Assembly (NCBI GenBank): GCA_026004495.1
Contig: BPJG01000001.1
Location: forward strand, 208,750-272,749
Source: Candidatus Parcubacteria bacterium
GTDB lineage: Bacteria > Patescibacteriota > Minisyncoccia > UBA6257 > HR35
DNA length: 64,000 bases
Direction: 5' to 3'
The notes below the pieces were generated by a model that had not been told where the DNA came from, did not search any database, and worked only from the letters and a program-made list of their open reading frames with translations. Positions 10,681 through 47,048 of the stretch are shown here, piece after piece; position 1 is the first letter of the stretch, and each line of letters opens with the position of its first letter. The position numbers and the translations under genes are program-made.

Positions 10681-11034
10681 ATGGTTAGAGTCAAAAGGGG
10701 TAAAATAAAAACTAAAAAAAGAAAGAAAATTTTAAAATTAGCCAAGGGTTACAAGTGGAGTAGAAAATCAAAAGAAAAATTTGCCAAAGAAGCAATTTTG
10801 CATGCTGGCGTAAAAGCTTATCGTGGACGCAAAGAAAAAAAGAGGAATTTTAGAAAATTATGGCAAGTTCAACTTAATGCCTTTCTTAGATCTCGTGGCT
10901 TGAAATATAGTACTTTTATTCATCAATTAAAAGAAAATAATATCATCTTAAATAGAAAAATTTTAGCCGAATTGGCTAATAATTATCCTCAAATTTTAGA
11001 TAATATTATCGAAGAATTAAATTTAAAAAGTTAG
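10681..11034 (+). CDS. rplT: 50S ribosomal protein L20
   Basis: MVRVKRG..., basic N-terminus, NRKILAELA motif; 117 aa. No infC/rpmI upstream; topA sits there instead. Confidence 0.9.
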   Translation: MVRVKRGKIKTKKRKKILKLAKGYKWSRKSKEKFAKEAILHAGVKAYRGRKEKKRNFRKLWQVQLNAFLRSRGLKYSTFIHQLKENNIILNRKILAELANNYPQILDNIIEELNLKS

Positions 11035-14000: not shown

Positions 14001-14248
14001 TAAATTGACGAATTATCTTCATCTAAACCAGTTAAATCATATAAAGGACCATCCAAATCAGGATTTTTTGCCAGGTTTAAATAGTTATTAATAGCTATTT
14101 CTAAAGCTTGTAAATCTCTTATTCTTTGTAAATCTCTATTTCTTTTGGCTACTTCAATAGGATTAACTAAATAAACAAACAAAGAGGTTAAAATAGCAAT
14201 CAAAGTTATAATAACTAAAATTTCAATTAAAGTAAAACCTTTTTTCAT
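11006..14248 (-). CDS. Giant pseudopilin-fusion surface protein (prepilin N-terminus, GspG-like domain, beta-propeller repeats)
   Basis: 1080 aa. N-terminus MKKGFTLIEILVIITLIAIL = class III signal peptide/prepilin motif (G|FTLIE). ~180 aa GspG-like domain shared with the neighbouring gene (NPDLDGP, GWLPINF, LPVDP, KNYFY). Remainder: repeated ~40 aa G/D/Y-rich propeller-like units. Confidence 0.75.
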   Translation of the reverse strand: MKKGFTLIEILVIITLIAILTSLFVYLVNPIEVAKRNRDLQRIRDLQALEIAINNYLNLAKNPDLDGPLYDLTGLDEDNSSIYISIPVDQSTFNFSTITDAYGNLWQIKQNSSATNVFNPNGEGWLPINFNENNQILPQLPVDPLNIINNSQPIKNYFYLYVFRRDARQFEVNANLESRVFKETKNQFSALTDGGSDEEILEVGNNKCLIAFGTSGSIIYGTTTLSSCQALKLNFGINYGNLMGQDICWNKLFNFYPTRNYVFRNKAGDYLVIGNNYLSSNTSSFLAIFLDKFGNPKFIKTIYLNTSSPLDLNYIHQLPDESYVLGYNLSDKSILIKTDKDFNPQWSRLYCSGSDCSAVQKLVFINNNFSGNINLIRNIGYYSGFQLVEISSSTGDILSGGDYYYQITFGRIYAGNKTQDDGFILLGSYGYMAVPPAFLAKFDNQNKIEWIKQYDNIAFSSYFSMDSPRNNYLFQTNDGGYFFNAMYDKSLNATSYIFVKTDYQGNLAWIKKYTGDYSTIDIRRIFQDKKNNFWLVVNSSSENYLIKLNQNFDKLTEYKITALSSNDRLVFNNFLQLDDNSYLLIGSFIDDSPFIAYLKKITKIIEAFGDDLKPEEFWFGFITKYYFNLIRFVSDKNLFYLKNNLYNITTTNIFSFSTISSPVSDISSFSTSNYNLTSTPLSLTSRVIKPNQKILVNQCDNYFSKNIGKNKKINKLIRADDGYVAVGEDLLINTSSFWIAKFDINGNIIVSSSSLMDPSYISHQFRSVIYDGNYFVTLGNYYQNDPVANSGYLAQFDSSLKLIMDNSFDSSYFSDITYDGINYIVVGRTNNNYGKIWLITSTTLKDISSINFALSSQFNSVLNQTNVFIFAGGEINNQSYLVKVKADLSYRWQKEYILKIGSRETIKKIIFADDGNIIALTNMFDPDDNRYKLILRKINPDDGEVIQEKLISNDYFYGNDIILDYDNNFLITGYLPLTQDGNNFSDWSLALMKVDKNFNLVWVKYYGGQSRDEISFGSSIVEADNAGYLIGGYNGALKGGWLLKVSYEGDCLGCSQLGFSNKIIDSFKNNLANFLNLILR

Positions 14249-17200
14249 TGATTAATTGTTATTGAATTAATTGTAATTGTAGGAATTTGAGATTCGTCCA
14301 GTCTAGGATCCCATTTAAGAATTATAAACATTTTAGAGCAAATTAGATTCAAATTATACAAACGATTTGATCCTTTTTGTAAATTATATTCTTTATCATC
14401 GCAAATAAATTTATATTCTTTTATTTTATCTTGATTATTATTCGTACTAGCATTAATATCAACAACATTAATAAACTTGGGAGGATCAATTACTTCAATA
14501 TAAATAGCATAATTTCTTGCTTTTTTACCTGTTTCTTTGCTACCCAAGAGGGTACTAGTAAAAGTTTCTCCTATCTCAAAAATTTGATTATCAGTAGTAA
14601 TTTTATAATACTTAAATTTTGCTTGTTTATTATACTTATCACCAACACCATCAATCGGCGTTGATGTTCCTTCACCTATCTCATTAATTGCTGAAATTGT
14701 ATAAGTTGCAGAGGTTGCTAAACTCATTAAATCAATATAATTTAAATTGTCTGGTGAATTGGTAGCAAGTAAAATATAATTACTTGAAGTTGCTCTATAA
14801 ATTCGGTATTCTTTTATTTTACCAAAACCAGCTTTGGAGGAATAATTTTCAATTTTATCAATTACTAACCAAGCACCAAAAGTTCCGGTTTGTCTAATTG
14901 AAAAACTTGGTTGGGGTAGTGTCAGAGCAGTTGTACAAATTTCATTACTTGGTAAACTTTCTCCATTAGGATAATTAGCTTTAACCACATAACAATAACT
15001 TTCGCCAGCTAAAAGATTATTATCAGTAAAAGAAAGAGTAGATGTATTTGTTGTTGCATATGGTGAATTACCATAACTACTTCCTTTAATTTTTCGATAA
15101 ATTGAATAATTTAACAATACGCTTTCACCAGCTGAAGCCCAATTAAGAGTAATAGAATTATTCCCTAAAGTATACCTTACATTTTGAGGCGGCAATTTAA
15201 AATAAAAACCAATAGAGTTATTACCTGAAGTTATTAAGGTACTTTGATTATTTATTGCTTTTATGAGATAGTTATTATTAGGTTTACTTTCGTAATTGTA
15301 ATCAATATAAGAAGTAGCGGTAGTGGTAACAATCTTGATTCCATTCCGATAGACAACATAATAATTAACACCGCTTACACCATTCCAAATTAGTTGAATT
15401 CCTGAATCGGAAGTATAACTAAGATTAGGAGAAATGGTTGACAATACACCCGAAAACAATGCTTGACACTTAACTAAGCTTTTATCACTTTCGCCAATTG
15501 AATTAAGTGCGGTAACATAATAACAATAATTAATTCCTTCACTTACCGAATTATCAGTATAAGAAGTAGCTGTTGTTGCAGCAATAAGAATAAAATTATT
15601 TATCTCATTAGTTGAGGTTGATCTATAAATTTTATAATACTGAATATTCTCACCACCATTATATTGAGGAAGTTGCCATTCAAGTACAATAGATAATGAA
15701 CCAGTCGAAATGCTTAAATCTACAGGAGGTGTTGGTCGTAATTTATCAGATGTTGTTGCTGAACAAAATTCATTGGAAAAATTACTAACAAAGAAAAATA
15801 AATGCAAACCACTTCGATAACAATTTTTACCAGATAAAGGACTAGTATCAGTTGCATAATTGCCAAAAATATTTGTTATGTAATTATAATTATCAGATGA
15901 AGTAGCCCGGTAAATATATACAAGAAAACTAGAAAGACTTCTTAAATAATCCAAAAAATTATCAATAGAGAGATAGTTATAATTAGCACCCGATCTTGAA
16001 AAAAGAGTATATCTTTTATCTATTAAATTAAATTCTGTAAAAAAAGATTTTTTAAATAAATCATTCACATTACAAACATTAGCTAAATTTTCATAATCAG
16101 GTAAAATTTTGGAAACGAAATTTAAACTATAATTTAAAACTTGAATATCGGGTGAATTGATTTTTAAATTCGATGAATAATGGAAAAAATTAGATGATAA
16201 AGCTGATGGACTGATAATATTAATTAAAAATCTTTGTTGGATATTACCTTTGTTAAATATATTAAAGACTGGATCACTACTTGAACTAATATTTAGTGCT
16301 AATTGTCTATAAGAAGATGGACCCGTTGTAAAATAATGAGAATTACCAACTATGAAATAATAATCATTAGAAGATATTTCTAAACCATAAAAATTATCAT
16401 TATTATACCAACCAATATTTTTAGCAAAAATTATCTCGCCTGTTGTCGAATTAATTTTCATTACCAAACCGTCATAATTTAGATTATTATATGAATTTGA
16501 TTTACCGATAATAATATAATTACCATCGTAATCTTTTTTAACCTTATAAAGATAGTCATCACCACCAGCTGAATATCTTTTTTGCCAAAGAATTTGACCT
16601 TGATTATCAATTGCAATAGCAAAAGGGTCGTAATGGTTAGCATCAAATTGACTATAGCCAAAAATTAAATAACCAGAAGAGGAGGTCGCGATTGCCATAC
16701 CAAAATCATTACCACCACTATCATAAATTTTTTGCCAAATTAATTTTCCTTCTCTATCTACTTTAATTAAAATCACATCATAATCTTTTCGAAAAGAATT
16801 GCTATAACCTACAATAATATATCCATTATCATTAGCTTTAATTAATCCTTGACCAACATCATTCTTTAGACCACCAAATGTTTTAAAAACTTTTATTACA
16901 CCATTATTATTAAAAAGCGAAAAAATAATATCGTTATCACCTTGACCAAAACTCGAAGAATAACCAGTAAGAATAATTTCATCGCCATCTAAAATTCCAG
17001 CAAATATTTTTTCATCTTTTTTACCACCAATTTTCTTTGACCAAACAGTATCAAATGTCGTCGAAGATATTCTTACCAACAGACCATCATAATTATTACC
17101 AGATTTTACTTGACCTCCCAAGATGAAATAACTGGATGAAGCAAGAATAAAATTAAAACTACTCTCATTGGTTGTACTTGAAATTTTAATAGCTTGAGGA

Positions 17201-20067
17201 TTGCCTAAAGAATCTAATTGATACAAAACACCATTGTAATTTTGATTATTCCATTCCCAACCAACAGTTAAATATTGATTATTGTTTTTAACAACATCAT
17301 TGAAATTATTATTTTTATTATTAGGAAGATAGATTTTAGCAAAACATTGCGAATTATAACGACCAACTATATTACTCTTAAAACCAAAACCATTTGCATT
17401 TTTAGCCTTAACATAATAGTAAATAGGTGTAGAAGCTGAATTATCTTGGTCAAGGTAGGTTAGTCCTGTTGTTGTAGCAAGTAATTGATAGGTAGATGTT
17501 GGTGTTGATGTTGCTTTATAAAGATAATATTCAGTGGTGGCTGCTCCTTCATCAGATATCGGTGGTTGCCAGTTAAGTTGAGTGTAGCTTTCTTGGGTTT
17601 CCCGAAAGTCCAAAGATAAAGGAAAAAGTGGTGTTGAATTCGGACTACCCATAACATAATTTGAAGGAATAGATTCTAAATCACAAAAATCGCCTGATAT
17701 TTTAGTAACATAATAATAATAATTCTTTCCATTGATTAAACCAGTTCGAGTAAAACTATTTGCTGGAGTTGTTCCAATAAGTTGATATTCATCGCCAGTT
17801 GACTCATAAATTGCAAAGGAGGGCTTAGTATCTTTAGCATCACCATCTTCCCAACTAAGACTAATTTTATTGACTAAAGATTGGAGACTTAAATTATTAG
17901 GAGATATACATTGGGTTCCAGGAGATGAACAATTTCCATAACAACCACTTTCAATATTACTTCTTTTGCTTTCGCCAATTGAATTAACAGCAGTAATATA
18001 GTAATAATAAGTAGTTTTAGAAGCAGTGGATAAATCATTATAGCTAGTAGCAGTAGTCGAAGCAATAAAAATATATTGAGAAGAAGTTGCTCGATAAATA
18101 TTGTAATAACTAACAGCTGAACCTTCATTAGAAAGAGGTGGTTCCCAAGTAAGACGAATACCATTAGCTAACGCTGAAGTCTGAAGTTTGCCGGGTGGTA
18201 TAGGATAACCTCGGGGAGTCGCAGAAACAGTAGTAGCATAATTAGAAACACCAAATTGATTTTTTGCTTGAATAGTATATTCATAAGTTTGTCCGTTAAT
18301 TAAATCTTGATGAGTGAATTGATAGCTATTTGTTGGAATAGCAGGAAATTCAAAAAGATAACGCCAATTATTTTCTCCGCTTAACCTGTAATAAAGTAAA
18401 TAAGAATCAATAACTGAACCACCATCATTGTTGGGATATTGCCAAGATAGGTTTATAGTTTTATTACCTGAAAAAGCTGAAAAATTAATTGGTGGTGAAG
18501 GATTTGTACCAGGGACAATGCATCGTTGTTGGCTAAAATTACTACTACCTACTTTATTAACAGCTTTAATTTTATAGCAATATTTTTGACCATTATTAAG
18601 ATTGGAATGTTGATAAACTAAAATATTATAACTTGTAGTTGCAATCAAGTTATCATTGTCATTATATATTTCATATCTAATTATTTCGCTACCACCATCA
18701 TCATCTGGTTTTAACCAAGTTATTACAATTTGCCCATCTCCAGGACTTAATTTATCAATAATAGGTGGTGAAGAGGTAGCAGTTATTTTAACATACACAG
18801 GTATAGTTATAGTTGAATCAGATTCAACTAAATAAATATTTTGCTTACAATAAAAATCTTGTTTAAATGATTTTAGCATTAAAGTAAATATTAAAGAAGT
18901 AGAAGAATAAGGATTTACGATAAAACTAGTTGGAGTGGAAATAACATAAGAAGGACAAGTCGTAGTTGTCTCTTTATAAAAAAAATCACGTAATTCAACT
19001 GATAGCTTTGAATCACCATTATTATAAATGATCAATTCATGGCTTACAGAGCTATCGGTTGTTTTTGCTTCTAAAATAGCAGTTGGGGGGTTAATTCTAT
19101 ATATTGGCGCGGCCGAAAAATTACAAGTTATATTTATTGAGTATGGATTGACTTTTTTAGGATCATTGTGCCAAATAAATAATATTGTTTCTGTTGTGGT
19201 TGCTGAAGTCAATGATCTACCATCACAAGTTAAAATAAGGGTTGTAGTATTATTGGGAGCAATAACAAAATTATTTTTATTTATTTTAAGCAATGAATTC
19301 TGGTTTGATTGAGTAATTTGATTAATTAATAAATAAGCTGTACCGGTATTATAAATATAAAGATAAGTAGAGGATGATTGAGAAATAGGGGCAGTTAAGA
19401 CTAAGGAGGTGGTATTAGTATTTAAAGACGGAAATGAAAGTTGATATTTACTATAACCATAAATTACTGGTGGAATAATATTTAAATCTGTTCCAACTTC
19501 AAAGGATTCGCTATCACCTCCATCACTTTTGGCAATTTCAATAAATTTAGGACATTCAAATTTAGCATTTAATTCATAAGATTTAGCTGATTTTTTAAAA
19601 GCATAAGAATAAAAATAATTTTTATTAAAAGAATTAATTGGATCTACTGGTAAAAGATTAATTGCTTTTTTTGATAAAGATAAAAAATTTATTGGTAACC
19701 AACCTTGGCCATTAATAAGCGAAGAAAGGGCAGTCGAAGAAGGTTGAATTATTAACCAATTTTTTCCTTCGAAACTAAATGAAGTTGAGGTTGATTCTTT
19801 ATCTTTAGGAATACTTATAAATATTGAGGAGCTTGATTCATCAAATCCAGAATTAGAAAAATAAGGACCATCTAAATCAGGATTATTTGTTTCCGAGAAG
19901 TAATGAGCAATCGCTGAATTTAATGAATTAAGGTCATTTATTCTCTGGGTATCTCGAGAGCATTTGATAATATCTAAAGGTTTAATTAAATTAATAACAA
20001 AAGTTGAAATTATACCCAAAGCTGATAAAACAGCAATTAATTCAATTAAAGTAAAACCTTTTTTCAT
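14245..20067 (-). CDS. Giant pseudopilin-fusion surface protein (prepilin N-terminus, multiple FN3 domains, beta-propeller repeats)
   Basis: 1940 aa. MKKGFTLIELIAVLSALGII prepilin N-terminus; paralogous GspG-like domain. At least 4-5 FN3-like modules (e.g. PSPPINFSAFSGNKTINLSWQYPNNDGGS...YEYTIQAKN). ~45 aa repeats (GG.NDxG..I...DGYII.GYS.S) typical of SBBP/DUF5122-like propellers. Overlaps the downstream paralog by 4 nt. Confidence 0.75.
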   Translation of the reverse strand: MKKGFTLIELIAVLSALGIISTFVINLIKPLDIIKCSRDTQRINDLNSLNSAIAHYFSETNNPDLDGPYFSNSGFDESSSSIFISIPKDKESTSTSFSFEGKNWLIIQPSSTALSSLINGQGWLPINFLSLSKKAINLLPVDPINSFNKNYFYSYAFKKSAKSYELNAKFECPKFIEIAKSDGGDSESFEVGTDLNIIPPVIYGYSKYQLSFPSLNTNTTSLVLTAPISQSSSTYLYIYNTGTAYLLINQITQSNQNSLLKINKNNFVIAPNNTTTLILTCDGRSLTSATTTETILFIWHNDPKKVNPYSINITCNFSAAPIYRINPPTAILEAKTTDSSVSHELIIYNNGDSKLSVELRDFFYKETTTTCPSYVISTPTSFIVNPYSSTSLIFTLMLKSFKQDFYCKQNIYLVESDSTITIPVYVKITATSSPPIIDKLSPGDGQIVITWLKPDDDGGSEIIRYEIYNDNDNLIATTSYNILVYQHSNLNNGQKYCYKIKAVNKVGSSNFSQQRCIVPGTNPSPPINFSAFSGNKTINLSWQYPNNDGGSVIDSYLLYYRLSGENNWRYLFEFPAIPTNSYQFTHQDLINGQTYEYTIQAKNQFGVSNYATTVSATPRGYPIPPGKLQTSALANGIRLTWEPPLSNEGSAVSYYNIYRATSSQYIFIASTTATSYNDLSTASKTTYYYYITAVNSIGESKRSNIESGCYGNCSSPGTQCISPNNLSLQSLVNKISLSWEDGDAKDTKPSFAIYESTGDEYQLIGTTPANSFTRTGLINGKNYYYYVTKISGDFCDLESIPSNYVMGSPNSTPLFPLSLDFRETQESYTQLNWQPPISDEGAATTEYYLYKATSTPTSTYQLLATTTGLTYLDQDNSASTPIYYYVKAKNANGFGFKSNIVGRYNSQCFAKIYLPNNKNNNFNDVVKNNNQYLTVGWEWNNQNYNGVLYQLDSLGNPQAIKISSTTNESSFNFILASSSYFILGGQVKSGNNYDGLLVRISSTTFDTVWSKKIGGKKDEKIFAGILDGDEIILTGYSSSFGQGDNDIIFSLFNNNGVIKVFKTFGGLKNDVGQGLIKANDNGYIIVGYSNSFRKDYDVILIKVDREGKLIWQKIYDSGGNDFGMAIATSSSGYLIFGYSQFDANHYDPFAIAIDNQGQILWQKRYSAGGDDYLYKVKKDYDGNYIIIGKSNSYNNLNYDGLVMKINSTTGEIIFAKNIGWYNNDNFYGLEISSNDYYFIVGNSHYFTTGPSSYRQLALNISSSSDPVFNIFNKGNIQQRFLINIISPSALSSNFFHYSSNLKINSPDIQVLNYSLNFVSKILPDYENLANVCNVNDLFKKSFFTEFNLIDKRYTLFSRSGANYNYLSIDNFLDYLRSLSSFLVYIYRATSSDNYNYITNIFGNYATDTSPLSGKNCYRSGLHLFFFVSNFSNEFCSATTSDKLRPTPPVDLSISTGSLSIVLEWQLPQYNGGENIQYYKIYRSTSTNEINNFILIAATTATSYTDNSVSEGINYCYYVTALNSIGESDKSLVKCQALFSGVLSTISPNLSYTSDSGIQLIWNGVSGVNYYVVYRNGIKIVTTTATSYIDYNYESKPNNNYLIKAINNQSTLITSGNNSIGFYFKLPPQNVRYTLGNNSITLNWASAGESVLLNYSIYRKIKGSSYGNSPYATTNTSTLSFTDNNLLAGESYCYVVKANYPNGESLPSNEICTTALTLPQPSFSIRQTGTFGAWLVIDKIENYSSKAGFGKIKEYRIYRATSSNYILLATNSPDNLNYIDLMSLATSATYTISAINEIGEGTSTPIDGVGDKYNKQAKFKYYKITTDNQIFEIGETFTSTLLGSKETGKKARNYAIYIEVIDPPKFINVVDINASTNNNQDKIKEYKFICDDKEYNLQKGSNRLYNLNLICSKMFIILKWDPRLDESQIPTITINSITINQ

Positions 20068-20198: not shown

Positions 20199-21632
20199 AT
20201 GAGATATCTAATTACAACCTCTATACCTTATGTAAATGATAATCCTCATATAGGACATCTTTATGAATATATTTTAGCAGACATTTTTGCCCGTTATTTT
20301 AGAAATAAAAATGATATCTTCTTTTTATCAGGAGTGGACGAAAATGGAATAAAAATAGCAAAATCTGCTATTGAAAATAATAAGAAAATAAAAGATTTTG
20401 TTGATGAAAAATATCTAAGTTTTTATTCTCTGAAGGATAAATTTTATTTATCTTTTGATAATTTTATTAGAACAAGTAGTGAAAATCATAAATGGGGAGT
20501 TTATAAATTTTGGCAATTATGCCAAGATGATATTTATATAGATAAATATTGTGGTTATTATTGTTATAGTTGCGAAGCCTATTATGAAGAGAACGAAGTT
20601 GAAAATTTAATTTGCCCTCTTCACAAAAAGAAATTAGAAAAAATTGAAGAAAAGAATTATTTTTTCAGACTCACAAAATATTTAGATCAAATTAAATTAT
20701 TAATTGAAAAAGAAAAAATAAAAATTTATCCTCAAGAAAAAAAAATAGAAATTTTAAATATTTTGAAAGAAAAAAAGATTAAAGATTTAAGTATTTCTCG
20801 TGATATCAACAGAAGCTATGGTTGGGGTATAACAACTCCTAATGATAATTCTCAGGTAATTTATGTCTGGTTTGATGCTTTAATAAATTATTTGTCTGGC
20901 TTAGGTTTTGGTAGTGATAATGAAACAAATTTTAAAAAATATTGGCACGAAGGAGAAGTTATTCATTTTATAGGTAAAGATATAGTTAAATTTCATGCTA
21001 TTTATTGGCCAGCAATGTTATTATCTGCTAAAATAAAGGTTCCCGATAAAATAGTTGTTCATTATTTTATCAATATACGAGGAGAAAAAATGTCAAAAAC
21101 AATTGGCAATGTAATTGGACCCAACGATTTATTAAATAACAATTTAGAACCAGATGTTATTAGAGCTTATTTCGCTTATCAAAATATATTTAACGATTGG
21201 GACTTTAATTTTCAAAATATAGTTAATTTTCGAGAAGGTATTTTAAAAAAAGAATTGGGTAATCTAATATTAAGAATTTATGGCCTTTTTAGAAAATACA
21301 ATAGGGATATTAAATTACAAAAAAATTTATTAAAAAAGGAAAATCTTACTACCTTAAATAATTATTCAAAATATATGGCTGATTTTGAAATAAATATAGC
21401 TTATCAAAATATATTTAATTTAGTAAAAGAACTAAATCAATTTATTGATAAAGAAAAAATTTGGCAAAATTTAAGTGAAGAAAATATTTCTACCTTGGCT
21501 TACAATCTTATTGATATTCTAAATGTTTATCAATTTTTAATGCCTGAAAAATTAAATCGAGTAAAAAATAATTTAAAAATTCAAGATGATTTTCTTATAA
21601 ATAAAGATTTGGAATTAAAACCTATCTTTTAA
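20199..21632 (+). CDS. metG: Methionyl-tRNA synthetase (compact)
   Basis: HIGH motif (PYVNDNPHIGH), KMSKS (KMSKTIG), Zn-knuckle cysteines; start codon placed immediately after the tRNA-Glu 3' end (track start 20190 overlaps the tRNA). Confidence 0.88.
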   Translation: MRYLITTSIPYVNDNPHIGHLYEYILADIFARYFRNKNDIFFLSGVDENGIKIAKSAIENNKKIKDFVDEKYLSFYSLKDKFYLSFDNFIRTSSENHKWGVYKFWQLCQDDIYIDKYCGYYCYSCEAYYEENEVENLICPLHKKKLEKIEEKNYFFRLTKYLDQIKLLIEKEKIKIYPQEKKIEILNILKEKKIKDLSISRDINRSYGWGITTPNDNSQVIYVWFDALINYLSGLGFGSDNETNFKKYWHEGEVIHFIGKDIVKFHAIYWPAMLLSAKIKVPDKIVVHYFINIRGEKMSKTIGNVIGPNDLLNNNLEPDVIRAYFAYQNIFNDWDFNFQNIVNFREGILKKELGNLILRIYGLFRKYNRDIKLQKNLLKKENLTTLNNYSKYMADFEINIAYQNIFNLVKELNQFIDKEKIWQNLSEENISTLAYNLIDILNVYQFLMPEKLNRVKNNLKIQDDFLINKDLELKPIF

Positions 21633-22952
21633 TAATTCTTGAGTTAATTTATAGGCATCTCCTGCACCCATAATTAAACAAATGTCTCCTCTTTTCAAGT
21701 TATTTTTTAAAAAATCTATAGCCTTAGAAAAAGATTCAAGATAAAAAACATTATACTTATGTTTGCTTATTTCACTAACTAATTTTTTAGAATTTATTAA
21801 ACTCATAATTTTTTTATTTTCTCTACCAGCAACAGTATAAATATCTAAAATACCTACATAATCAGCAAGATCAAAGGCGTGAATGAATTCTGAGAAATGA
21901 TAATAGGTTCGATAATATTGATGAGGCTGAAAAATAATAAATAATCTTCCACCTTTAGATAATATTTCCTTACCCGCCTGAAGAGTAGCTTTTATTTCAG
22001 TTGGATGATGGCCATAATCATCAAAAATTTTAGCACCATTTACTTTACCTTTATATTCAAATCTACGCCAAATTCCTTTAAACCTTTTTAGAGCCTTGAG
22101 AGAAATTTTTTTATTAATATTTAAAATTTCAGCAACCTTTAGGGCAGCTAAAGCATTACTTATATTATGCCTTCCCGCAACACTTAATTCAATTTTTTCT
22201 CTATTATTTTTTAAGCTATAAGTTAATAAATTAATTTTATTTTCTTTAATAATGTTTTTAATTTCTCTAATAAATATTTGGCACCCCTTATCGTCTTTAT
22301 TAATAATTAAATATTTTTTATCGCCAGTCAAATTAAATATAAATTTTTTAAATGTCTTTAAAATGTTTTCGAAATTTTTATAGTAATCCAAATGTTCGGC
22401 TTCAATATTAGTAATTATTAAAATAGAGGGGTGGTGATTTAAAAAGCCAGCTTTATATTCATCAGCTTCAATAATTAAATATTTACTCCTACCATAACGA
22501 AAATTAGATTCTTCACCTTGAGAACCGAAATTTTTTACCTTTGAACCAATAATAACAGTTGGATCCAATTTAGCTTCAATAAAAATTTGCGCTACCATAG
22601 CAGTAGTAGTGCTTTTTCCATGCATACCAGCAATAGCAATCGTAAAATAATTTTTAGTTAATTTGCCTAATGCTTGAGGATAACTTAGGTTTGGAATTTT
22701 TATTTTTTTTGCTTCTAATAATTCTGGGTTGTCTTTTTTAATCGCTAAAGAATAAATTACTAAATCTATATTTTTATTAATATTTTTTTTACTATGATTT
22801 AAGAAAAATTTTATTTTAGTTAATTCATCCTTAGAAAAAACATCTCTTGGATAAACAAAATCGCTACCTGAAATTTTATTGCCTTGATATAAATAATATT
22901 TAGCCAAGGCACTAATTCCTATACCACCTATACCAATAAAGTGAATTTTCAT
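21615..22952 (-). CDS. murC: UDP-N-acetylmuramate--L-alanine ligase
   Basis: N-terminal HFIGIGGIGISALA, Mur ligase P-loop (GMHGKSTTT). Confidence 0.88.
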   Translation of the reverse strand: MKIHFIGIGGIGISALAKYYLYQGNKISGSDFVYPRDVFSKDELTKIKFFLNHSKKNINKNIDLVIYSLAIKKDNPELLEAKKIKIPNLSYPQALGKLTKNYFTIAIAGMHGKSTTTAMVAQIFIEAKLDPTVIIGSKVKNFGSQGEESNFRYGRSKYLIIEADEYKAGFLNHHPSILIITNIEAEHLDYYKNFENILKTFKKFIFNLTGDKKYLIINKDDKGCQIFIREIKNIIKENKINLLTYSLKNNREKIELSVAGRHNISNALAALKVAEILNINKKISLKALKRFKGIWRRFEYKGKVNGAKIFDDYGHHPTEIKATLQAGKEILSKGGRLFIIFQPHQYYRTYYHFSEFIHAFDLADYVGILDIYTVAGRENKKIMSLINSKKLVSEISKHKYNVFYLESFSKAIDFLKNNLKRGDICLIMGAGDAYKLTQELLKDRF

Positions 22953-23016: not shown

Positions 23017-23769
23017 ATGAACAGAAGATTAAAAAAACAAATAATTTATGCAATCATTATTTTGTCCTTAATGACAATCCTTGTTGTTGGCTTATGGTTT
23101 ATTTTTAGACCAGCTCCTTCTTGTTTTGATAATAAAAAAAATGGGCAAGAAGAAGGAATTGACTGTGGTGGACCATGTTTGCCTTGCGAAATAGTTAATT
23201 TAAACTTAAGGGTTGAAAAACCTAGAACTATCATTTATCCTGATAATACCTTAGATATTATAACTATCATCAAAAATCCATCTGATAAGTATGGCTTAAG
23301 AAAATTTAATTATAAGTTTATTTTAAAAGGAGATAATAATATAAAAGCTGAATTAAGTGGAGAAAGCTTTATTATGCCCCTTCAAACAAAATACTTAACA
23401 GCAGTTAATATTAAAAAGCCAGATTTTAATATTATTTCAGCTGATATTGAAATTAATTTTGATAAAAAAGATTGGCTAATAATTGATCAGAATGAAACAA
23501 AAATTGAAATGTTAAATTACGAAATAAAAGATAATAAATTATTAGCAGAAATAATTAATAATGACACAATACCTTATAATGATTTGGAAATAAATTTTTT
23601 AGTTTATGATATTTTAGGAAATATAATTGGAGTTTTAAAAACAAAAATTGATTATTTAGAGCCATTAGAAAGAAGAAATATTAGCTTAACCCTTCCTCCT
23701 ATATCTCAAGAAATTAATAAGATAGATATTTTATCTTATTACAATTTTTTCTATCAAAATGAAAATTAA
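23017..23769 (+). CDS. Hypothetical membrane-anchored protein (possibly division-associated)
   Basis: 250 aa; single N-terminal TM; directly upstream of and 11 nt overlapping ftsW/rodA; no motif recognised. Confidence 0.45.
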   Translation: MNRRLKKQIIYAIIILSLMTILVVGLWFIFRPAPSCFDNKKNGQEEGIDCGGPCLPCEIVNLNLRVEKPRTIIYPDNTLDIITIIKNPSDKYGLRKFNYKFILKGDNNIKAELSGESFIMPLQTKYLTAVNIKKPDFNIISADIEINFDKKDWLIIDQNETKIEMLNYEIKDNKLLAEIINNDTIPYNDLEINFLVYDILGNIIGVLKTKIDYLEPLERRNISLTLPPISQEINKIDILSYYNFFYQNEN

Positions 23770-24799
23770 TATATTTATCTTGATTTCTCTTATATTGTGT
23801 ATGTTTTTTTCTGTTTCAACTCTTATTTCTATAAACAAAAAGGATGAATTTTTTAAATCAATAATATTTTGGTTAATATCTTTCTTAATTCTATTTTCTT
23901 CCCTTTATCTTAGATACAACAATATTTTTTATTATCCCTATTTTCAGGCCTTTTATGCCTTAACTATTATTTCTCTTCTACTTTTATTTATCTTACCATC
24001 AAAACAAAGAATGTGGTTTTCTTTAGGAGGCTTATCTTTACAACCTTCGGAATTTGCCAGGATTATTCTTCTTGTAAGCTTAACTATATTTTTGAGCAAA
24101 TATTATAATTTTCTTAAAAATAATTTATATCTTGGATTTAGTTTTTTAATTATTTTACCTCTAATACTTTTAATCGCTCTCCAACCAGATTTAGGTATGA
24201 CTTTATTATTTTTACTTACTTGGTTTTTTTCAATAATAATATTTCTAAGGAAACAGCAGATTGTTTTTTTGATAATTTTATTTTTAATATTAGGAGCTAT
24301 TGGATGGCAATTTGTTTTAAAGGATTATCAGAAAGAGAGAATTTTGACTTTTATTAATCCAGAAAGAGATCCATTGGGTTCAGGTTATAATATTAAACAA
24401 CTAAAAATAACTATTGGCTCAGCTGGCTTTTGGGGTAAAGGCCTAGGACAGGGAACTCAAGCGAAATTAGGCTTTTTGCCTTCAGCTGAAACAGATTTTA
24501 TTTTAGCTAGTTTTATTGAAGAAAGAGGATTTTTAGGATTTTTGATATATTCATTTTTAATCTTTATTATCTTAAAAACAATTCTATTTGAATCAAGTTT
24601 TATTAAAAACCCAATTGGCAAAGTTTATTCTAATATTTTGGTAATTCATTTAGCTATAAAATTTTTACTAACAACTGCTATAAATTTAGGCTTTTTCCCT
24701 ATTATTGGCTTAGCCGTACCCTTTATGAGTTATGGGGGATCCCATTTATTGTCAGATTTTATACTTATTAGTATTTGGCATAACTTTAGAAATATTTAA
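23759..24799 (+). CDS. ftsW: SEDS-family peptidoglycan glycosyltransferase (FtsW/RodA)
   Basis: Multi-TM; conserved LPSAETDFILASFIEERGFLG motif. Confidence 0.82.
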   Translation: MKINIFILISLILCMFFSVSTLISINKKDEFFKSIIFWLISFLILFSSLYLRYNNIFYYPYFQAFYALTIISLLLLFILPSKQRMWFSLGGLSLQPSEFARIILLVSLTIFLSKYYNFLKNNLYLGFSFLIILPLILLIALQPDLGMTLLFLLTWFFSIIIFLRKQQIVFLIILFLILGAIGWQFVLKDYQKERILTFINPERDPLGSGYNIKQLKITIGSAGFWGKGLGQGTQAKLGFLPSAETDFILASFIEERGFLGFLIYSFLIFIILKTILFESSFIKNPIGKVYSNILVIHLAIKFLLTTAINLGFFPIIGLAVPFMSYGGSHLLSDFILISIWHNFRNI

Positions 24800-24849: not shown

Positions 24850-25485
24850 ATGGGCCTTTTGTTTAAATTATCAATAATAATATTTATCTTAGCCTTAATA
24901 ACTTTTGCTTTTAGTTATTATTTTAAAAATTATTATAACTTAAATGAAACATATATTTTAGATTCAAAATTACCTAATAGTAAATCTACTAATACTATTC
25001 AACAAACATCAATAGAAAGTAATAATCAAATAACAAATACAACTGAAACTAATCAGAGTGATTTATTAAATATTCAAAATAATGTAAAAGTATTGGTTCC
25101 AATTGAAGATAAAAACAAAAAAATAAATTCTAATCAAAATAATGATAATTTAAATTCAAGTAATAATTTAACCTCAACAGAAGAAAATATTTCTTATGAA
25201 TATAAAGGTGAAGTTATAATTAAGGCAAGCGAATTTAAGTTTGAACCAAATATTTTTAGAGTTAAGGAAGGTCAAAAAGTAAAATTAATTATAAAAAACG
25301 AAGGTAAAATTCCTCATAACTTAAAAATAGAGAAAGAAAATATTGTTTTTCAAACATCACTAATAGGTCCTAATGAAGAATCGATATTAGAATTTACTAC
25401 TCCTCCTAAGGGTGAATATGATTTTTATTGTACCTTAGATGACCATAAGCTAAGGGGTATGTTTGGTAAAATGATAGTCGAATGA
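24850..25485 (+). CDS. Membrane-anchored cupredoxin (type-1 blue copper protein)
   Basis: 211 aa. N-terminal TM, N/S/T-rich linker, C-terminal ~100 aa cupredoxin with full ligand set in canonical spacing: His (IPHNL), Cys-x2-Asp-x-His (YCTLDDH), Met (GMFG). Confidence 0.65.
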   Translation: MGLLFKLSIIIFILALITFAFSYYFKNYYNLNETYILDSKLPNSKSTNTIQQTSIESNNQITNTTETNQSDLLNIQNNVKVLVPIEDKNKKINSNQNNDNLNSSNNLTSTEENISYEYKGEVIIKASEFKFEPNIFRVKEGQKVKLIIKNEGKIPHNLKIEKENIVFQTSLIGPNEESILEFTTPPKGEYDFYCTLDDHKLRGMFGKMIVE

Positions 25486-27028: not shown

Positions 27029-27613
27029 TTAATCAATTAATTCATCTTTTCTAAACCAAATTTTAAGTTCATATTGAGCTTCTTTAATATTTCCGGAAGC
27101 ATGAATTAGGTTTTTTATAGCTCTTTTTTCTAAATTAGCCACAATTGGTGAGTCGATAGCAAAATCACCCCTAATTGTCCCTGGTGGAGCTTTATAGGGC
27201 AATGTTGGACCGACAATTTTTCTCACTACTTCAACTGCATGATTTCCCTCGATGGCTATTTTTACTATAGGACCAGAACACATAAAATCTATAAGCCATT
27301 TTCTTACTAATAAGCCTAAATTATAAACATCATTAACTCCGAAATCTTTTTTTAAATCATATTTAATATTATTTTCTTGACAAGTTTTTATGAAATTATT
27401 ACCTAAATTTTCTATCCACTCCCTTGTTTTGGGATAATGTTTGTCAATTAAATTTTTTGTTGCTCTTACTATTCCTAAGCCAACAATTTTTAATCCTGCC
27501 CTTTCAAAACGAGAAATTATTTCACCAATTAAACCTCTTTCAATTCCGTCAGGCTTTATTAATACTAAGGTTCTTTCTTTTTTAAATTTTTTAAGATTAT
27601 TATTAATATCCAT
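27029..27613 (-). CDS. ndk: Nucleoside diphosphate kinase
   Basis: ERTLVLIKPDG, NLIHASG motifs. Start reassigned to internal Met (MDINNN...) because the track's N-terminal extension (to 27694) overlaps the RNase P RNA. Confidence 0.8.
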   Translation of the reverse strand: MDINNNLKKFKKERTLVLIKPDGIERGLIGEIISRFERAGLKIVGLGIVRATKNLIDKHYPKTREWIENLGNNFIKTCQENNIKYDLKKDFGVNDVYNLGLLVRKWLIDFMCSGPIVKIAIEGNHAVEVVRKIVGPTLPYKAPPGTIRGDFAIDSPIVANLEKRAIKNLIHASGNIKEAQYELKIWFRKDELID

Positions 27614-27640
27614 TTTCTTTTTTATCAAAAATGAATAAAT

Positions 27641-28011
27641 AATCTTGGTAAGATTATAAGCCGGATTCTGTATCCTTAAAATTAAGGACAGCAATCATTT
27701 ATCTGGAACTTAGATTACTCAAAGTTTCAAGCGGTACTCCCAAATTAAATTGGGCACGACCTTGCACCCGGAAAAGAAGGAAACAATTTTCTGAATTACT
27801 TCAGAAAATAATGGAGTAGCCTAAAAATGACTTTTTAGACACCTCCATTCTTTTCACCTTTCTCCGATTTGAAAACTAGATAGTATAGTCTCTGTGCTTC
27901 CTTCTTAGGGCTTACGCCCTAGCTCCATTTCGGAGCTTTCCTTTTTAGGGTGTCCGGACTTTCCTCTCTTTAATATAAGAATTAAAGAGTGATTGCTTAT
28001 CCTACCAAGAT
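27641..28011 (-). ncRNA. rnpB: RNase P RNA (bacterial type A-like)
   Basis: Minus-strand sequence carries P4 5' strand AGGAAAGUCCGGAC and P4 3' strand ACAGAAUCCGGCUUA. P3 hairpin CUCUUUAAU...AUUAAAGAG. 5'/3' ends pair as a long P1 (AUCUUGGUAGGAUAAGC / GCUUAUAAUCUUACCAAGAU). ~370 nt, GC-enriched, ORF-free. Confidence 0.85.
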
Positions 28012-28528: not shown

Positions 28529-30097
28529 CTATTTTACGATAACTTTCAACTCAGATTTTTTTACATTACTTAAAGGCCAATAAGACTCAATAACAAAACT
28601 TTCATCGGTAGTAAATTCTACTTTTGTACTCTGACCCGGTTTTATGGGTTCAGTTTTAAACTTTTTACTTCTAAAATCTAAGCCACCATAATAAACATTT
28701 TGATTCTTGACAATTAAATAAAGAATAACTTTTGTATTTCGAGGAACTTTAATACTTGCTGGATAAAAACCATAATCATCTGCCTCCACTTTTAATTCTT
28801 TGATATTATTTAAAGAAACTGTTGATTGGGTTGTTGTGGTTAAGCTTATTGAACATTTATTTGTCCTTATCCAGCCCTCAGGAACATCGCAAGGTGTTGG
28901 AAATTCTTTACATTCAGAAGGATTTTGAGGATTATAGGCTGGAGCGATTACTTGAATACAGCTTTCTGGTTTTTCAGGCGCCAAAGAACTTTTAGGAATA
29001 ATTTCAAATGGTTTATCGCTCATATCACTTTCTTTTGATTGATCACCAATAATTTCAATCAGATAATAACCCCAATCTAAAGTTTTGTCTTGTAGGGTAG
29101 TTTGACCTTGCCATTGATATTCACCAGTATTAGGAATATTTTCGGCAATAATTATTAGCATTAGTTCAGGCATTGAACAAGCTGGTTGTGTGTAAAGACA
29201 AGCAATATAGGGTTTTAAATAAATACTTACTGTTTTATCTTTTGGTGCTACCCATTTTATTTTTTGATAAGAATCAATTGGCCAAACTTCTCCACCATTG
29301 GGTGAAATAACTCTTAATTTTGCTTCTTTTGGTGGTTGCGATGTTGAGATAATTTTTCTTACAATCAAAGCCTCAATGCCATAATTATCTTTGTCCATAA
29401 ATCCATAAACATTTATCTTGTCACCAACATTAAAATCATCTAATCCTGATCTTTGTCTATTTCTTTGAAGTAAAATTGTGTCATCTGTAATTTTAATTGT
29501 TAATTCTTTAAATAAAATTTGTCTCCTTAAATCTAAAGCACAAGGAAGGGAGATCTCACTATCTTCTGATTCAAACATTAAACATTTCCAGCTAATATCT
29601 CTAACTGCAAAAAGGATTGCTTTTGTATTTTCAATTCCTGGTTCTTTAATAATTCTTGTTATCCTTAAATTATTTAACTGGACAATAGCATCATCTTCTC
29701 TAATTTCATCAGGCAAAATTTTTTGAAAGATGTTGGGAGTTAGGGGAGTTTGAGTTGCTGGAATAACTGGTTGAATTCCCTTAGGTAAATTTTTTGGTGC
29801 TGGTATTGGAAGAAGCTTTTCTATTTCTGTTATTTGTTTTTCTTGAATTTCTTCTATTTCAATTGGCGGCTGTGTCTGATTAATCGAATATTGCTGAATT
29901 AATTTTTGTAAGATATCCAAAAAATTTATGGAAGCTTGTTTCTCTTGAATAGCTTGTTGATTAATCGAATATTGCTGACTTAATTTTTGTAAGATGTCCC
30001 CAATTTGATTTAAAAGATTTTGATCGACTTGAGTTGTCTGGGCAGAAACAAAACTAATGCCTATAAAAATTATTAGAAATAAAGCATATTTTTTCAT
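28529..30097 (-). CDS. Secreted repeat protein with C-terminal cupredoxin-like (copper-ligand-less) domain
   Basis: 522 aa. Signal peptide MKKYALFLIIFIGISFVSAQT. Duplicated peptide (ILQKL.QQYSINQ) encoded by an 81-bp tandem DNA repeat. C-terminal ~90 aa resembles the 24850..25485 cupredoxin fold (F.P..I.V....V.L..KN...EFTT) but lacks His/Cys/Met ligands. Confidence 0.55.
   Translation of the reverse strand: MKKYALFLIIFIGISFVSAQTTQVDQNLLNQIGDILQKLSQQYSINQQAIQEKQASINFLDILQKLIQQYSINQTQPPIEIEEIQEKQITEIEKLLPIPAPKNLPKGIQPVIPATQTPLTPNIFQKILPDEIREDDAIVQLNNLRITRIIKEPGIENTKAILFAVRDISWKCLMFESEDSEISLPCALDLRRQILFKELTIKITDDTILLQRNRQRSGLDDFNVGDKINVYGFMDKDNYGIEALIVRKIISTSQPPKEAKLRVISPNGGEVWPIDSYQKIKWVAPKDKTVSIYLKPYIACLYTQPACSMPELMLIIIAENIPNTGEYQWQGQTTLQDKTLDWGYYLIEIIGDQSKESDMSDKPFEIIPKSSLAPEKPESCIQVIAPAYNPQNPSECKEFPTPCDVPEGWIRTNKCSISLTTTTQSTVSLNNIKELKVEADDYGFYPASIKVPRNTKVILYLIVKNQNVYYGGLDFRSKKFKTEPIKPGQSTKVEFTTDESFVIESYWPLSNVKKSELKVIVK
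29876..29999. repeat. Intragenic tandem direct repeat, 2 copies of ~43 bp conserved core at 81-bp period
   Basis: ctgattaatcgaatattgctgaattaatttttgtaagatatcc / ttgattaatcgaatattgctgacttaatttttgtaagatgtcc; encodes the duplicated peptide in 28529..30097. Confidence 0.8.
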
Positions 30098-38967: not shown

Positions 38968-39919
38968 AGTTTAAATCATTATATTCCTTTAAATAGATTA
39001 TTTTTTTATCAACCTGTTCTAATTCTCCATCTAGATTAATTTTATAAACAAATTTAAATCCTAAATTTTCTAATATTTCCACTGCTTTATATGAAAGATT
39101 TTCTTTATCGCTCCATACTTCCATAATAATCAGCAAAGAAGATTCTGAACTTTCCAGAAAATTTTTAGCTCCTTTTAAAACTATACTTTCTGCACCTTCA
39201 ACATCTAATTTAATAATAGTAGGAGGATGATGATTTTCTAAATATCTATCTAAAGTTATTGTTTTAATTTTAATCGGTTCTTTTCTAAATATAGCCTTAC
39301 AGCTATCATAGACATTATTTACAATTGTAGAAGCTCCAGTGCCATATTTACCAACATAAATATTTGTATAACCTTCATTATCAGACAATGCGAGATTGTT
39401 TAAAAAACAGTTTGAATCATTAGCTAAATTTTCTTTAATATATTCAAAAATAAATGGGAGGGGTTCAAAAATATGCACTTCTTTACAAAAAATAGAGGCT
39501 AAATAGCTATAATAACCAATGTTTGCTCCGATATCATAAAATATATCTTCTGATTGTAGATTTTTTACTAAAAATTTAGTAAGTTTTATATCGGGTAGAG
39601 ATGGAGGGCATCCAAAATGTATAAGTAATAAGCTACTTAAATCGTCTAAAGGTAACTGGATTTCTTTCATATTAAAAATATGAGTATGTAGGCTTTTATT
39701 TCGTAAAATAAATTTAGGTATAATTCTATTCAAAATATTGATAATTAAGGCAGGTAAATAGAATTGAGGACAATTTAGTAGCTTTAATAATCTGTCTTTA
39801 ATCCTATAACTTCTTAAAGTTACTATCTTTTTTAAACAATCTGTATCTACTTTCTTTTGTAAATAATTTAGAATTAATTTTCTCTTATCTTCTATTTCCA
39901 TGATAAATTTCTCCAACAA
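38939..39919 (-). CDS. FkbM-family methyltransferase (second copy)
   Basis: FYDIGANIGYYSYLASIFCKEVHIFEP, near-identical motif block to 37000..37917. Confidence 0.7.
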   Translation of the reverse strand: MLEKFIMEIEDKRKLILNYLQKKVDTDCLKKIVTLRSYRIKDRLLKLLNCPQFYLPALIINILNRIIPKFILRNKSLHTHIFNMKEIQLPLDDLSSLLLIHFGCPPSLPDIKLTKFLVKNLQSEDIFYDIGANIGYYSYLASIFCKEVHIFEPLPFIFEYIKENLANDSNCFLNNLALSDNEGYTNIYVGKYGTGASTIVNNVYDSCKAIFRKEPIKIKTITLDRYLENHHPPTIIKLDVEGAESIVLKGAKNFLESSESSLLIIMEVWSDKENLSYKAVEILENLGFKFVYKINLDGELEQVDKKIIYLKEYNDLNYVFTKTPRL

Positions 39920-46955: not shown

Positions 46956-47048
46956 TGAAAATTAATTATGTAATTAACATAAACAGTTCGGATATATTAT
47001 TTTGTTTTGTTTACTCCGTCCGTGTATAGCCTGTATTCAGCTTTTATA

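Follow-up and report, generated by a model that had tools for sequence, protein, structure and literature searches.

The cupredoxin gene and its genome

Within a stretch of 64,000 nucleotides from the genome KatS3mg094, referred to here as the window, an open reading frame (ORF) encodes a small membrane-tethered protein of the cupredoxin fold with a predicted type-1 (T1) copper site. This ORF is 100% identical to the NCBI entry KatS3mg094_219, which is annotated as a hypothetical protein of Candidatus Parcubacteria bacterium. The genome is a metagenome-assembled genome (MAG) from the Katase hot spring, represented by a single contig that is not circularised (634,165 bp, 623 coding sequences, 25.6% GC, CheckM completeness of 73.6%), and it belongs to the lineage Patescibacteria; Paceibacteria; order UBA6257; family HR35 (PMC9671151). 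Given this published size and classification, the premise of a reduced genome of the candidate phyla radiation (CPR), on which an earlier sequence-only reading of the window was based, is correct. The window has a G+C content of about 26% and covers about 10% of the genome. Since CPR/Patescibacteria are generally read as fermentative epibionts lacking electron-transport chains, proteins with redox cofactors at their surface serve as clues to interactions with oxygen, nitrogen oxides, metals, or a host. The coordinates of the gene, its parts, and the related features are collected in Table 1.

Table 1. Positions of the cupredoxin gene, its parts, and associated features (window coordinates unless a locus is named; aa, amino acids; AF2, AlphaFold2; pLDDT, predicted local distance difference test score; TM, transmembrane).
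Feature	Position	Strand	Remarks
Membrane-tethered single-domain cupredoxin (KatS3mg094_219)	24850..25485	+	Complete ORF, ATG to TGA, 211 aa
TM signal-anchor helix, residues 1-28 (MGLLFKLSIIIFILALITFAFSYYFKNY)	24850..24933	+	AF2 helix 2-28, pLDDT 90-95
Disordered low-complexity N/S/T/Q-rich linker ("stalk"), residues 29-118	24934..25203	+	pLDDT about 47-54
Cupredoxin beta-sandwich domain, residues 119-211	25204..25482	+	Pfam PF13473 and PF00127 above gathering scores
His156 codon, N-terminal His ligand of the predicted T1 copper site	25315..25317	+	Aligns with plastocyanin His37 and the equivalent His of 4hcf
Predicted ligand loop C194-T-L-D-D-H199-K-L-R-G-M204 (Cys, His, and Met ligands; C-x4-H-x4-M)	25429..25461	+	Read from the sequence
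MurC-like Mur ligase, divergent, left edge of the conserved block	21615..22952	-	Pfam Mur_ligase, Mur_ligase_M, Mur_ligase_C
p250 (250-aa membrane protein) and RodA/FtsW (SEDS family), co-directional upstream pair	23017..24799	+	11-bp overlap
Cupredoxin-like domain lacking copper ligands, at the C-terminus of a 522-aa secreted protein (28529..30097)	28532..28831	-	Sub-threshold Cupredoxin_1 match
Second membrane-anchored cupredoxin-fold gene (four-His family)	46445..46955	-	Clean ORF 46445..46855, 136 aa, TTG start
Fe/Mn superoxide dismutase	47049..47666	-	Sod_Fe_N E 7e-30, Sod_Fe_C E 2e-43
Further four-His family loci	L076 5001-5519; L078 5001-5570; L082 4001-4456

Architecture, family, and fold

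The protein is built of three parts, namely an N-terminal TM helix, a disordered linker, and a C-terminal cupredoxin domain. The membrane anchor and the N/S/T-rich stalk that the sequence-only reading had placed ahead of the domain are both recovered in the AF2 model, and N, S, T, and Q together account for 53% of the linker residues, compared with a background of 22%. In the anchor helix, 64% of the residues are hydrophobic. Among four orthologous loci the helix is 73-85% identical, whereas the linker reaches only 35-37%, and 13 residues of the helix are invariant in an alignment of the protein with its relatives (A1).

The domain, spanning residues ~119-211, is recognized by two Pfam families, Cupredoxin_1 (PF13473; 48.6 bits against a cut-off of 27, E 8.9e-13) and Copper-bind (PF00127; 41.5 bits against 21.2, E 1.8e-10), and the orthologue at a more distant locus, L013, scores 64.8 and 36.8 with the same models. 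Family profiles and structure prediction, the checks proposed by the sequence-only reading for its fold assignment, thus point to the same fold. The AF2 model, built on a 70-sequence alignment of relatives (A3), presents the core (residues 121-211) as a beta-sandwich of eight to nine strands with a pLDDT of 96-98. In a Foldseek comparison with the PDB, the best match was the copper-bound structure 4hcf (TM-score 0.81-0.88, rmsd 2.1 Å over 91 columns, probability 1.00), followed by auracyanins, CuA domains, AcoP, amicyanin, and plastocyanin, with the auracyanin 6kol in third place; the probability was also 1.00 for auracyanins, amicyanin, and plastocyanin.

Membership of the named NCBIfam families was rejected in each case considered: plastocyanin (TIGR02656, 35.6 against a cut-off of 87.85), amicyanin (TIGR02657, 18.3 against 110.2), halocyanin (TIGR03102, 18.6 against 93.8), rusticyanin (TIGR03095, 19.5 against 146.7), CopI (NF051440, 24.9 bits with E 1.4e-5 against 280, over 39 residues), and, on its own NCBIfam cut-off, the NosZ CuA domain. 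Because the scores for plastocyanin, amicyanin, halocyanin, rusticyanin, and CopI all lie below the cut-offs, KatS3mg094_219 is regarded as a member of an unnamed subfamily of PF13473/PF00127. A chance ORF or a mis-called motif is ruled out by the profile scores, the confidence of the model, the ratio of nonsynonymous to synonymous substitution rates (dN/dS), and the existence of orthologues; the gene is genuine and evolves under purifying selection.

The predicted type-1 copper site

Alignment with PDB sequences by phmmer and hmmsearch places H156, C194, H199, and M204 on the copper ligands of plastocyanin, 4hcf, 6kol, and the N-terminal cupredoxin domain of the nitrite reductase 2dv6. The ligand loop, CTLDDHKLRGM, is aligned with CSPHQGAGM in plastocyanin, CTYPAHYAGGM in 6kol, CSIAGHRQAGM in 2dv6, and CRYHLLKGM in 4hcf, and its C-x4-H-x4-M spacing is the same as in 6kol and the N-terminal domain of 2dv6. 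The whole protein contains one Cys and two His, and all three stand at ligand positions (window background of 0.7% for Cys and 1.1% for His); there are two internal Met and no His/Met-rich tract. Across the 70 sequences of A3, no change is seen at H156 or M204, and the conservation of C194 and H199 is 90% or more. The ligand pattern described in the sequence-only reading is therefore present and aligned with the ligands of solved blue-copper structures, and together with the TM helix and the above-threshold Pfam domain it upholds the description of the protein as a membrane-anchored cupredoxin with a complete type-1 ligand set. As judged from these alignments, the predicted ligand set is complete, and the domain would be expected to bind copper.

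Relatives and selective constraint

A word-index search returned six close orthologues with 53-82% identity, all of them in Parcubacteria/Patescibacteria MAGs or metagenome contigs. A profile search of 1.84 billion representatives gave 4,707 relatives at E<=1e-3 and only 7 at E<=1e-30, so that the protein belongs to a narrow orthologue group within a very large family of small cupredoxins. A scan of GTDB representative genomes, in which the derived patterns were very specific, found only two loci, and the more distant orthologues were reached by a metagenome scan. The combination of a TM helix or lipobox, a linker, and a cupredoxin domain is repeated in many relatives, and this common occurrence of lipoboxes or TM anchors with linkers argues for a location of the domain outside the cytoplasm.

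In comparison with four orthologous loci, the cupredoxin domain is 78-81% identical, and the corresponding values are 72-81% for RodA, 70-77% for MurC, 70-75% for methionyl-tRNA synthetase (MetRS), and 72-77% for RNase III; the conservation of the domain is thus equal to or above that of its housekeeping neighbours. The dN/dS of the domain, calculated by the Nei-Gojobori method on pairs with unsaturated dS, is 0.12-0.14. Most orthologues keep all four ligands, including a more distant group whose loop has the plastocyanin-like spacing C-x2-H-x4-M.

A conserved gene block with peptidoglycan genes

The cupredoxin gene begins 50 bp after RodA and is the last of three co-directional genes, next to the divergent MurC-like gene. 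This block, MurC / p250-RodA-cupredoxin, recurs in the loci L001, L003, L004, L008, L009, and L011, as well as in the more distant loci L012-L017, L020, and L021, in which RodA is ~60% and the cupredoxin domain ~52% identical to the window proteins; the 1.6-kb fragment L018 includes no more of the block than the 3' end of RodA. In the distant group, a gene for a class IV aminotransferase is inserted between RodA and the cupredoxin gene. The flanks are variable: among the loci with listed ORFs, a reverse-gyrase-like gene is the downstream neighbour in L013 and L017, replacing the series RNase III-NusB-L32-NDK, and glycosyltransferases stand upstream in place of MetRS in L013. The persistence of the block through rearrangement on both sides is moderate evidence of functional coupling to envelope synthesis, or at least of a shared transcription unit. 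Between positions 22900 and 25700, in AT-rich DNA, 26 promoter-like sites were counted, which is not above the expectation from shuffled sequence (19.8 +/- 5.2), and a terminator scan of the same interval detected none between RodA and the cupredoxin gene, a result that does not tell on co-transcription.

No family of Pfam or NCBIfam matches the protein p250 (23017..23769, + strand), in which the TM helix is closely followed by a Cys-rich motif, C-F-D-N-x5-G-x-E-x-G-I-D-C-G-G-P-C-L-P-C. It is kept upstream of RodA in all related loci, at 40-74% identity, and may act with the SEDS protein as a partner specific to CPR. The reverse-gyrase-like gene encodes 1171 aa with DEAD helicase, Toprim, and topoisomerase IA domains (L013 6756..10271 and L017 5122..8637, both on the - strand). 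Regarded as a marker of (hyper)thermophily in CPR-like genomes, it adjoins the cupredoxin gene in these low-GC distant relatives. At a further locus, L005, genes for pilins of a type IV secretion system (T4SS) adjoin a distant cupredoxin relative.

Other cupredoxin-like genes and superoxide dismutase

The sequence-only reading had listed two further cupredoxin-fold proteins in the window, and neither turns out to be a blue-copper protein, as one lacks the ligands and the other has a different, four-His site. For the first, the 522-aa secreted protein, the description of a fold without ligands holds at modest strength: its C-terminus scores 23.2 bits with Cupredoxin_1 (cut-off 27, E 7e-5), hhalign against the domain profile of KatS3mg094_219 (A2) gives a probability of 82% (E 1.1e-5), and where KatS3mg094_219 has the ligands H, C, and H, this protein has G, W, and a non-ligand residue.

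For the second, the cupredoxin fold and the conservation of His and Cys are supported, but the span 46445..46955 crosses two frameshifts and its His and Cys residues form no T1 site. The N-terminal part, 46856..46990 on the - strand, is spread over three frames, one holding ATG-GAA-AGA-ATT-TAA, one the TM helix (GKNLITTVFILAFLLGIGYYFLIN), and one the domain; the ATG at 46955 and the TM helix stand in two frames other than that of the clean ORF. As the homologues are intact at 145-190 aa, this points to assembly indels (homopolymer, long-read) or a recent pseudogene. Against the domain profile of KatS3mg094_219, the 136-aa protein reaches an hhalign probability of only 3%, and the two are therefore not close paralogues.

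The family of this second protein counts at least 367 members at E<=1e-5, of which 25 were aligned, with identities of 46-91%; it is found in HR35, HR34, Komeilibacteria, Liptonbacteria, Brennerbacteria, and one MAG of Aenigmatarchaeota (DPANN). Members are typically 145-190 aa long and consist of a TM helix or lipobox, a P/T-rich linker, and the domain. The invariant positions of a 25-sequence alignment (A5) include WPAS-xx-H73-P-x-H76, C87, D97, C99, W118, H121, and H123, the last of which is at least 90% conserved in a 60-sequence alignment (A6). The family thus has four His, placed in HPxH and HDH motifs, and two invariant Cys that likely form a disulfide. In the alignment with amicyanin, the positions of the T1 Cys, His, and Met are taken by D, N, and F; many members are named "plastocyanin" by JGI, a name to which the ligand pattern gives no support. 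The AF2 model built on 60 sequences has a core pLDDT of 92-97, and its Foldseek matches include the purple cupredoxin 5fc9, amicyanin, and plastocyanin.

The Fe/Mn superoxide dismutase (SOD) noted in the sequence-only reading was confirmed by matches to both of its Pfam domains. The four-His gene lies directly downstream of the SOD gene on the same strand in the window, a frequent arrangement in the family that is also seen in HR35 (14-bp gap) and in Komeilibacteria (10-bp gap). In two lineages, a CopA-like P-type ATPase with an HMA domain is encoded <= 4 kb from the four-His gene, and one of these also has genes for DsbA, VKOR, and glutaredoxin; in other lineages there is no such context beside the gene. 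This has the appearance of a family of surface metalloproteins with a link to oxidative stress. A literature search found no paper that treats CPR, SOD, and cupredoxin together, and this SOD-linked family, much larger in CPR bacteria, may be a more novel lead than the T1 cupredoxin.

Other genes of the window

The remainder of the window encodes ribosomal proteins, aminoacyl-tRNA synthetases, RNases, a glycosyltransferase cluster, giant fn3 surface proteins, an ATPase resembling T4SS coupling proteins, the RNase P RNA, and three tRNAs. Near the SOD gene and a CofD-like gene (49170..50162) lies a gene for the C-terminal domain of BpsA, the branched-chain polyamine synthase (48097..49077, - strand, E 1.2e-81), an enzyme typical of thermophiles. 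Two adjoining giant ORFs of 1080 and 1940 aa occupy 11006..20067 (- strand); fn3 domains are found in the larger, which has a 1942-aa counterpart in the related genome mg095 (L001), and the smaller has no Pfam family. Both products are probably surface or adhesion proteins of an epibiont. An 811-aa protein (1225..3660, - strand) gives weak matches to TrwB_AAD_bind, T4SS-DNA_transf, and DUF87, which represent T4SS coupling proteins or HerA-like ATPases. As listed, the ORF of nucleoside diphosphate kinase (NDK; 27029..27694, - strand, 221 aa from a TTG) runs ~50 nt into the 3' part of the RNase P RNA gene (27641..28008, - strand), and because the orthologues have 193 aa, the true start is probably further downstream. 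Within the glycosyltransferase cluster there are two ORFs of the UDP-glucose/GDP-mannose dehydrogenase family (42187..43014 and 39892..41166, both on the - strand), and one of 275 aa lacks the N-terminal part of the NAD-binding domain as well as the C-terminal UDP-binding domain and may be a truncated or frameshifted copy.

A proposed role at the cell envelope

Based on the features described above, KatS3mg094_219 is, with moderate confidence, an outward-facing, membrane-tethered T1 copper protein that takes part in one-electron or copper chemistry at the cell envelope. In the proposed mechanism, the uncleaved N-terminal helix would anchor the protein in the cytoplasmic membrane, and the flexible N/S/T/Q-rich linker of ~90 residues would keep the minimal cupredoxin domain, itself of ~90 residues, off the membrane. 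One copper ion would be bound through His156, Cys194, His199, and Met204, and by cycling between Cu(II) and Cu(I) the domain would exchange single electrons with a partner on the cell surface. The gene with its purifying selection, the fold, the set of ligand residues, and the three-part architecture are the firm parts of this scheme, while the outside orientation of the domain, copper binding, and electron transfer are deduced. A precedent exists in Parcubacteria, for which cupredoxins have been put forward as carriers in the periplasm (PMC5581439, PMC12931201). Because the gene lies in a conserved peptidoglycan block, the redox or copper chemistry would most likely take place at the cell envelope, not in a respiratory chain. 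According to published annotation the partner is not NirK, Nor, or Nos, and it is not encoded in the window.

A number of observations weigh against this assignment. The ligand loop is unusually charged (D-D-H-K-L-R), unlike the hydrophobic docking patch of classical carriers. One or more canonical ligands have been lost in 4 of ~17 distinct orthologous sequences: H199N accompanied by L201M in L003/L008/L009/P0005 (loop CTLSDNKMRGM), C194S with H199Y in L004/P0004, H156Y in L021, where one altered base in a single metagenome contig may be an error, and P0181, which has none of the ligands. The proteins of L003 (H199N) and L004 (C194S and H199Y) are as constrained as the intact ones, with a dN/dS of 0.12-0.14, and the L004 domain is the closest of all to the window protein, at 81% identity. 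Such equal constraint suggests that the T1 site is dispensable for the role of the family, and the step made in the sequence-only reading from T1 ligands to an electron carrier with a partner is accordingly weakened, given that orthologues without the Cys and/or the His ligand remain under purifying selection. For the sister lineages, the copper site can be called evolutionarily dispensable, and the natural ligand variants are available for experiments.

The search for a partner also speaks against an electron carrier. In a Pfam scan covering 56 of the 58 window ORFs of at least 90 aa (all except the RNase III and NusB genes), no oxidase, nitrite, NO, or N2O reductase, multicopper oxidase, cytochrome, NDH, or copper ATPase was detected, and none was seen in ~3 kb beyond each window edge, which is covered by short Logan contigs with ribosomal, integrase, and glycosyltransferase genes. 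Beside three more distant TM-anchored relatives (P0016, P0025, and P0017) there are only T4SS-pilin and toxin genes and no redox gene. In the published annotation, the part of Table S5 used here, which spans nitrogen-cycle enzymes and has no oxidase columns, lists all nitrogen-cycle functions (nirKS||octR, norBC, nosDZ, nap/nar) as Absent for KatS3mg094, its sole Present entry being alpha-amylase (PMC9671151). A NirK in the same genome is therefore found neither in the window nor in that part of the table, a third-party annotation of a MAG that is 73.6% complete. Most biogeochemical-cycling genes are described as lacking in the Patescibacteria MAGs of that study (PMC9671151). The sequence-only reading had held that a blue copper protein implies a redox partner of a kind that CPR genomes usually lack. 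The lack is borne out here as far as the window and the Absent entries for nirKS, norBC, and nosDZ extend, but the implied rarity of such proteins was overstated, as cupredoxins had been described in NirK-bearing Parcubacteria in 2017 (PMC5581439) and 2025 (PMC12931201).

Alternative explanations

An unlikely alternative is that the protein is an accessory of envelope biogenesis, acting as a scaffold partner of the p250-RodA elongation module through its TM helix and the surface of its beta-sandwich, with the T1 site as an ancestral and dispensable feature. The order MurC / p250-RodA-(class IV aminotransferase)-cupredoxin persists down to ~60% RodA identity while the flanks are replaced, and the identity of 73-85% with 13 invariant residues in the TM helix is far beyond the need of a passive anchor. 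The losses in L003/L008/L009, L004, L021, and P0181 appear independent, and pairs with the ligand-deficient proteins of L003 and L004 still give a dN/dS of 0.12-0.14. On the other hand, most orthologues, including the distant C-x2-H-x4-M group, keep all four ligands, the H156Y of L021 is one base in one contig and thus a possible error, linkage inside one clade of family-to-order level may be inherited gene order, and the promoter and terminator scan cannot tell co-transcription. We know of no cupredoxin with a role in peptidoglycan synthesis.

Copper handling is quite unlikely as the primary function. The protein would then buffer or sequester copper at the surface, or hand it over to another surface protein, as in the precedents CopI and CupA. 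In its favour, no redox partner was detected in the window or listed in the nitrogen-cycle part of Table S5, and NF051440, the model for CopI, gives a weak and partial match (24.9 bits, E 1.4e-5), although this score is far below the cut-off of 280 and the match is limited to 39 residues. The extra Met in the loop of the H199N orthologue (CTLSDNKMRGM) may create a Cys/His/Met/Met set favouring Cu(I), and the other surface cupredoxin-fold protein of the genome has relatives near CopA-like ATPases. However, no gene for CopA, CopZ, CsoR, or CopY occurs near the window gene or its orthologues, a His/Met-rich tract is lacking, and the predicted site has the canonical T1 set, not the Cys/Met Cu(I) site of chaperones.

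It is improbable that KatS3mg094_219 donates electrons to a standard copper enzyme whose gene lies outside the window or has escaped annotation, the candidates being NirK, a multicopper oxidase, and a haem-copper oxidase: the two CPR papers do pair single-domain cupredoxins with NirK (PMC5581439, PMC12931201), the window is only ~10% of a genome that is not circularised and is 73.6% complete by CheckM, and the part of Table S5 used has no oxidase columns, yet nirKS, norBC, and nosDZ are listed there as Absent both for KatS3mg094 and for its relatives mg093, mg095, and mg096, most biogeochemical-cycling genes are said to be lacking in these Patescibacteria MAGs (PMC9671151), mg094 does not appear in supplementary file 7, taken from its layout as a list of multi-haem cytochromes, and no such gene lies beside any orthologue.

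A more speculative extension of the envelope redox role, to which we give a similarly small chance, is that the T1 cupredoxin is the electron-entry half of a split surface copper system. In one version, the T1 cupredoxin and the four-His protein, whose gene stands in an apparent operon with SOD, may together form a two-polypeptide analogue of NirK or a multicopper oxidase, combining a T1 site with a His-ligated catalytic site; if true, the pair could serve in the extracellular detoxification of O2, superoxide, or NO. In the other, the T1 cupredoxin may serve the p250-RodA module, oxidation of the Cys-rich ectodomain of p250 being one example, and, if true, might exchange electrons with the host cell to which the epibiont attaches.

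Comparison with known systems

In function and architecture, the closest analogues of KatS3mg094_219 are the auracyanins, membrane-tethered T1 copper proteins of Chloroflexus and Roseiflexus (6kol, 1qhq, 2aan) that likewise combine an anchor, a flexible linker, and a cupredoxin domain. The auracyanin 6kol is the best PDB match by sequence (E 1.2e-7), and its loop has the same C-x4-H-x4-M spacing (CTYPAHYAGGM versus CTLDDHKLRGM). Nevertheless, KatS3mg094_219 and auracyanin share only about 24% identity, their domains differ in size (about 125-140 aa in auracyanin and about 90 aa here), and the ligand loop is hydrophobic in auracyanin and charged in KatS3mg094_219. Auracyanins belong to organisms with complete electron-transport chains, in which they connect alternative complex III with terminal acceptors, and we know of no electron-transport chain of this type in KatS3mg094.

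The best structural match is 4hcf, one of the entries (4hcf, 4hcg, 4hci) of a Cupredoxin_1 protein from B. anthracis that is the structural representative of PF13473. Its minimal domain is of equal size, its His, Cys, His, and Met align with those of the window protein, and it was crystallised with copper; the identity is 26%, and the loop follows C-x2-H-x4-M, unlike the C-x4-H-x4-M here. As 4hcf is an uncharacterised structural-genomics entry, no function is transferable from it to KatS3mg094_219. Plastocyanin, amicyanin, and halocyanin have the common fold and ligand set, and plastocyanin sequences in the PDB match at E about 1e-6. These families are soluble or lipid-anchored carriers with defined partners, whereas KatS3mg094_219 is TM-anchored. 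The copper-resistance protein CopI and the copper chaperone CupA have a cupredoxin fold and act outside the cytoplasm, as proposed for KatS3mg094_219, and CupA is anchored in the membrane by an N-terminal helix. They differ in that there is no cop operon context here and that the predicted site has the T1 set in place of the Cys/Met Cu(I) site of CupA.

Within the phylum, cupredoxins of Parcubacteria were reported in 2017 in NirK-bearing genomes (Danczak et al. 2017, PMC5581439), and in 2025 a single-domain cupredoxin, "pcy", was proposed as the donor to NirK, the donor to pcy itself being unknown in that work (Adv Sci 2025, PMC12931201). By description, pcy resembles KatS3mg094_219: both are single extracytoplasmic cupredoxin domains from the same phylum, with no complex III and no obvious upstream donor. 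The difference is that the pcy genomes encode the acceptor NirK, while KatS3mg094 is reported to be without it. An intact, constrained gene in a genome from which NirK, the only partner proposed before, is reported absent means that the role of NirK donor is not general for cupredoxins of this phylum. Few or no relevant papers came from literature searches that coupled CPR with blue copper, plastocyanin, or SOD, and term searches of the main texts of PMC5581439 and PMC12931201 found no mention of linkage to RodA/MurC or of recurrent ligand loss.

KatS3mg094_219 is thus no new kind of protein, since single-domain cupredoxins are already known from NirK-bearing Patescibacteria, and the fermentative picture of CPR bacteria is not overturned by it. 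What distinguishes it from these precedents is the reported absence of NirK, the linkage to peptidoglycan genes, the conserved TM helix, and the recurrent loss of the copper ligands.

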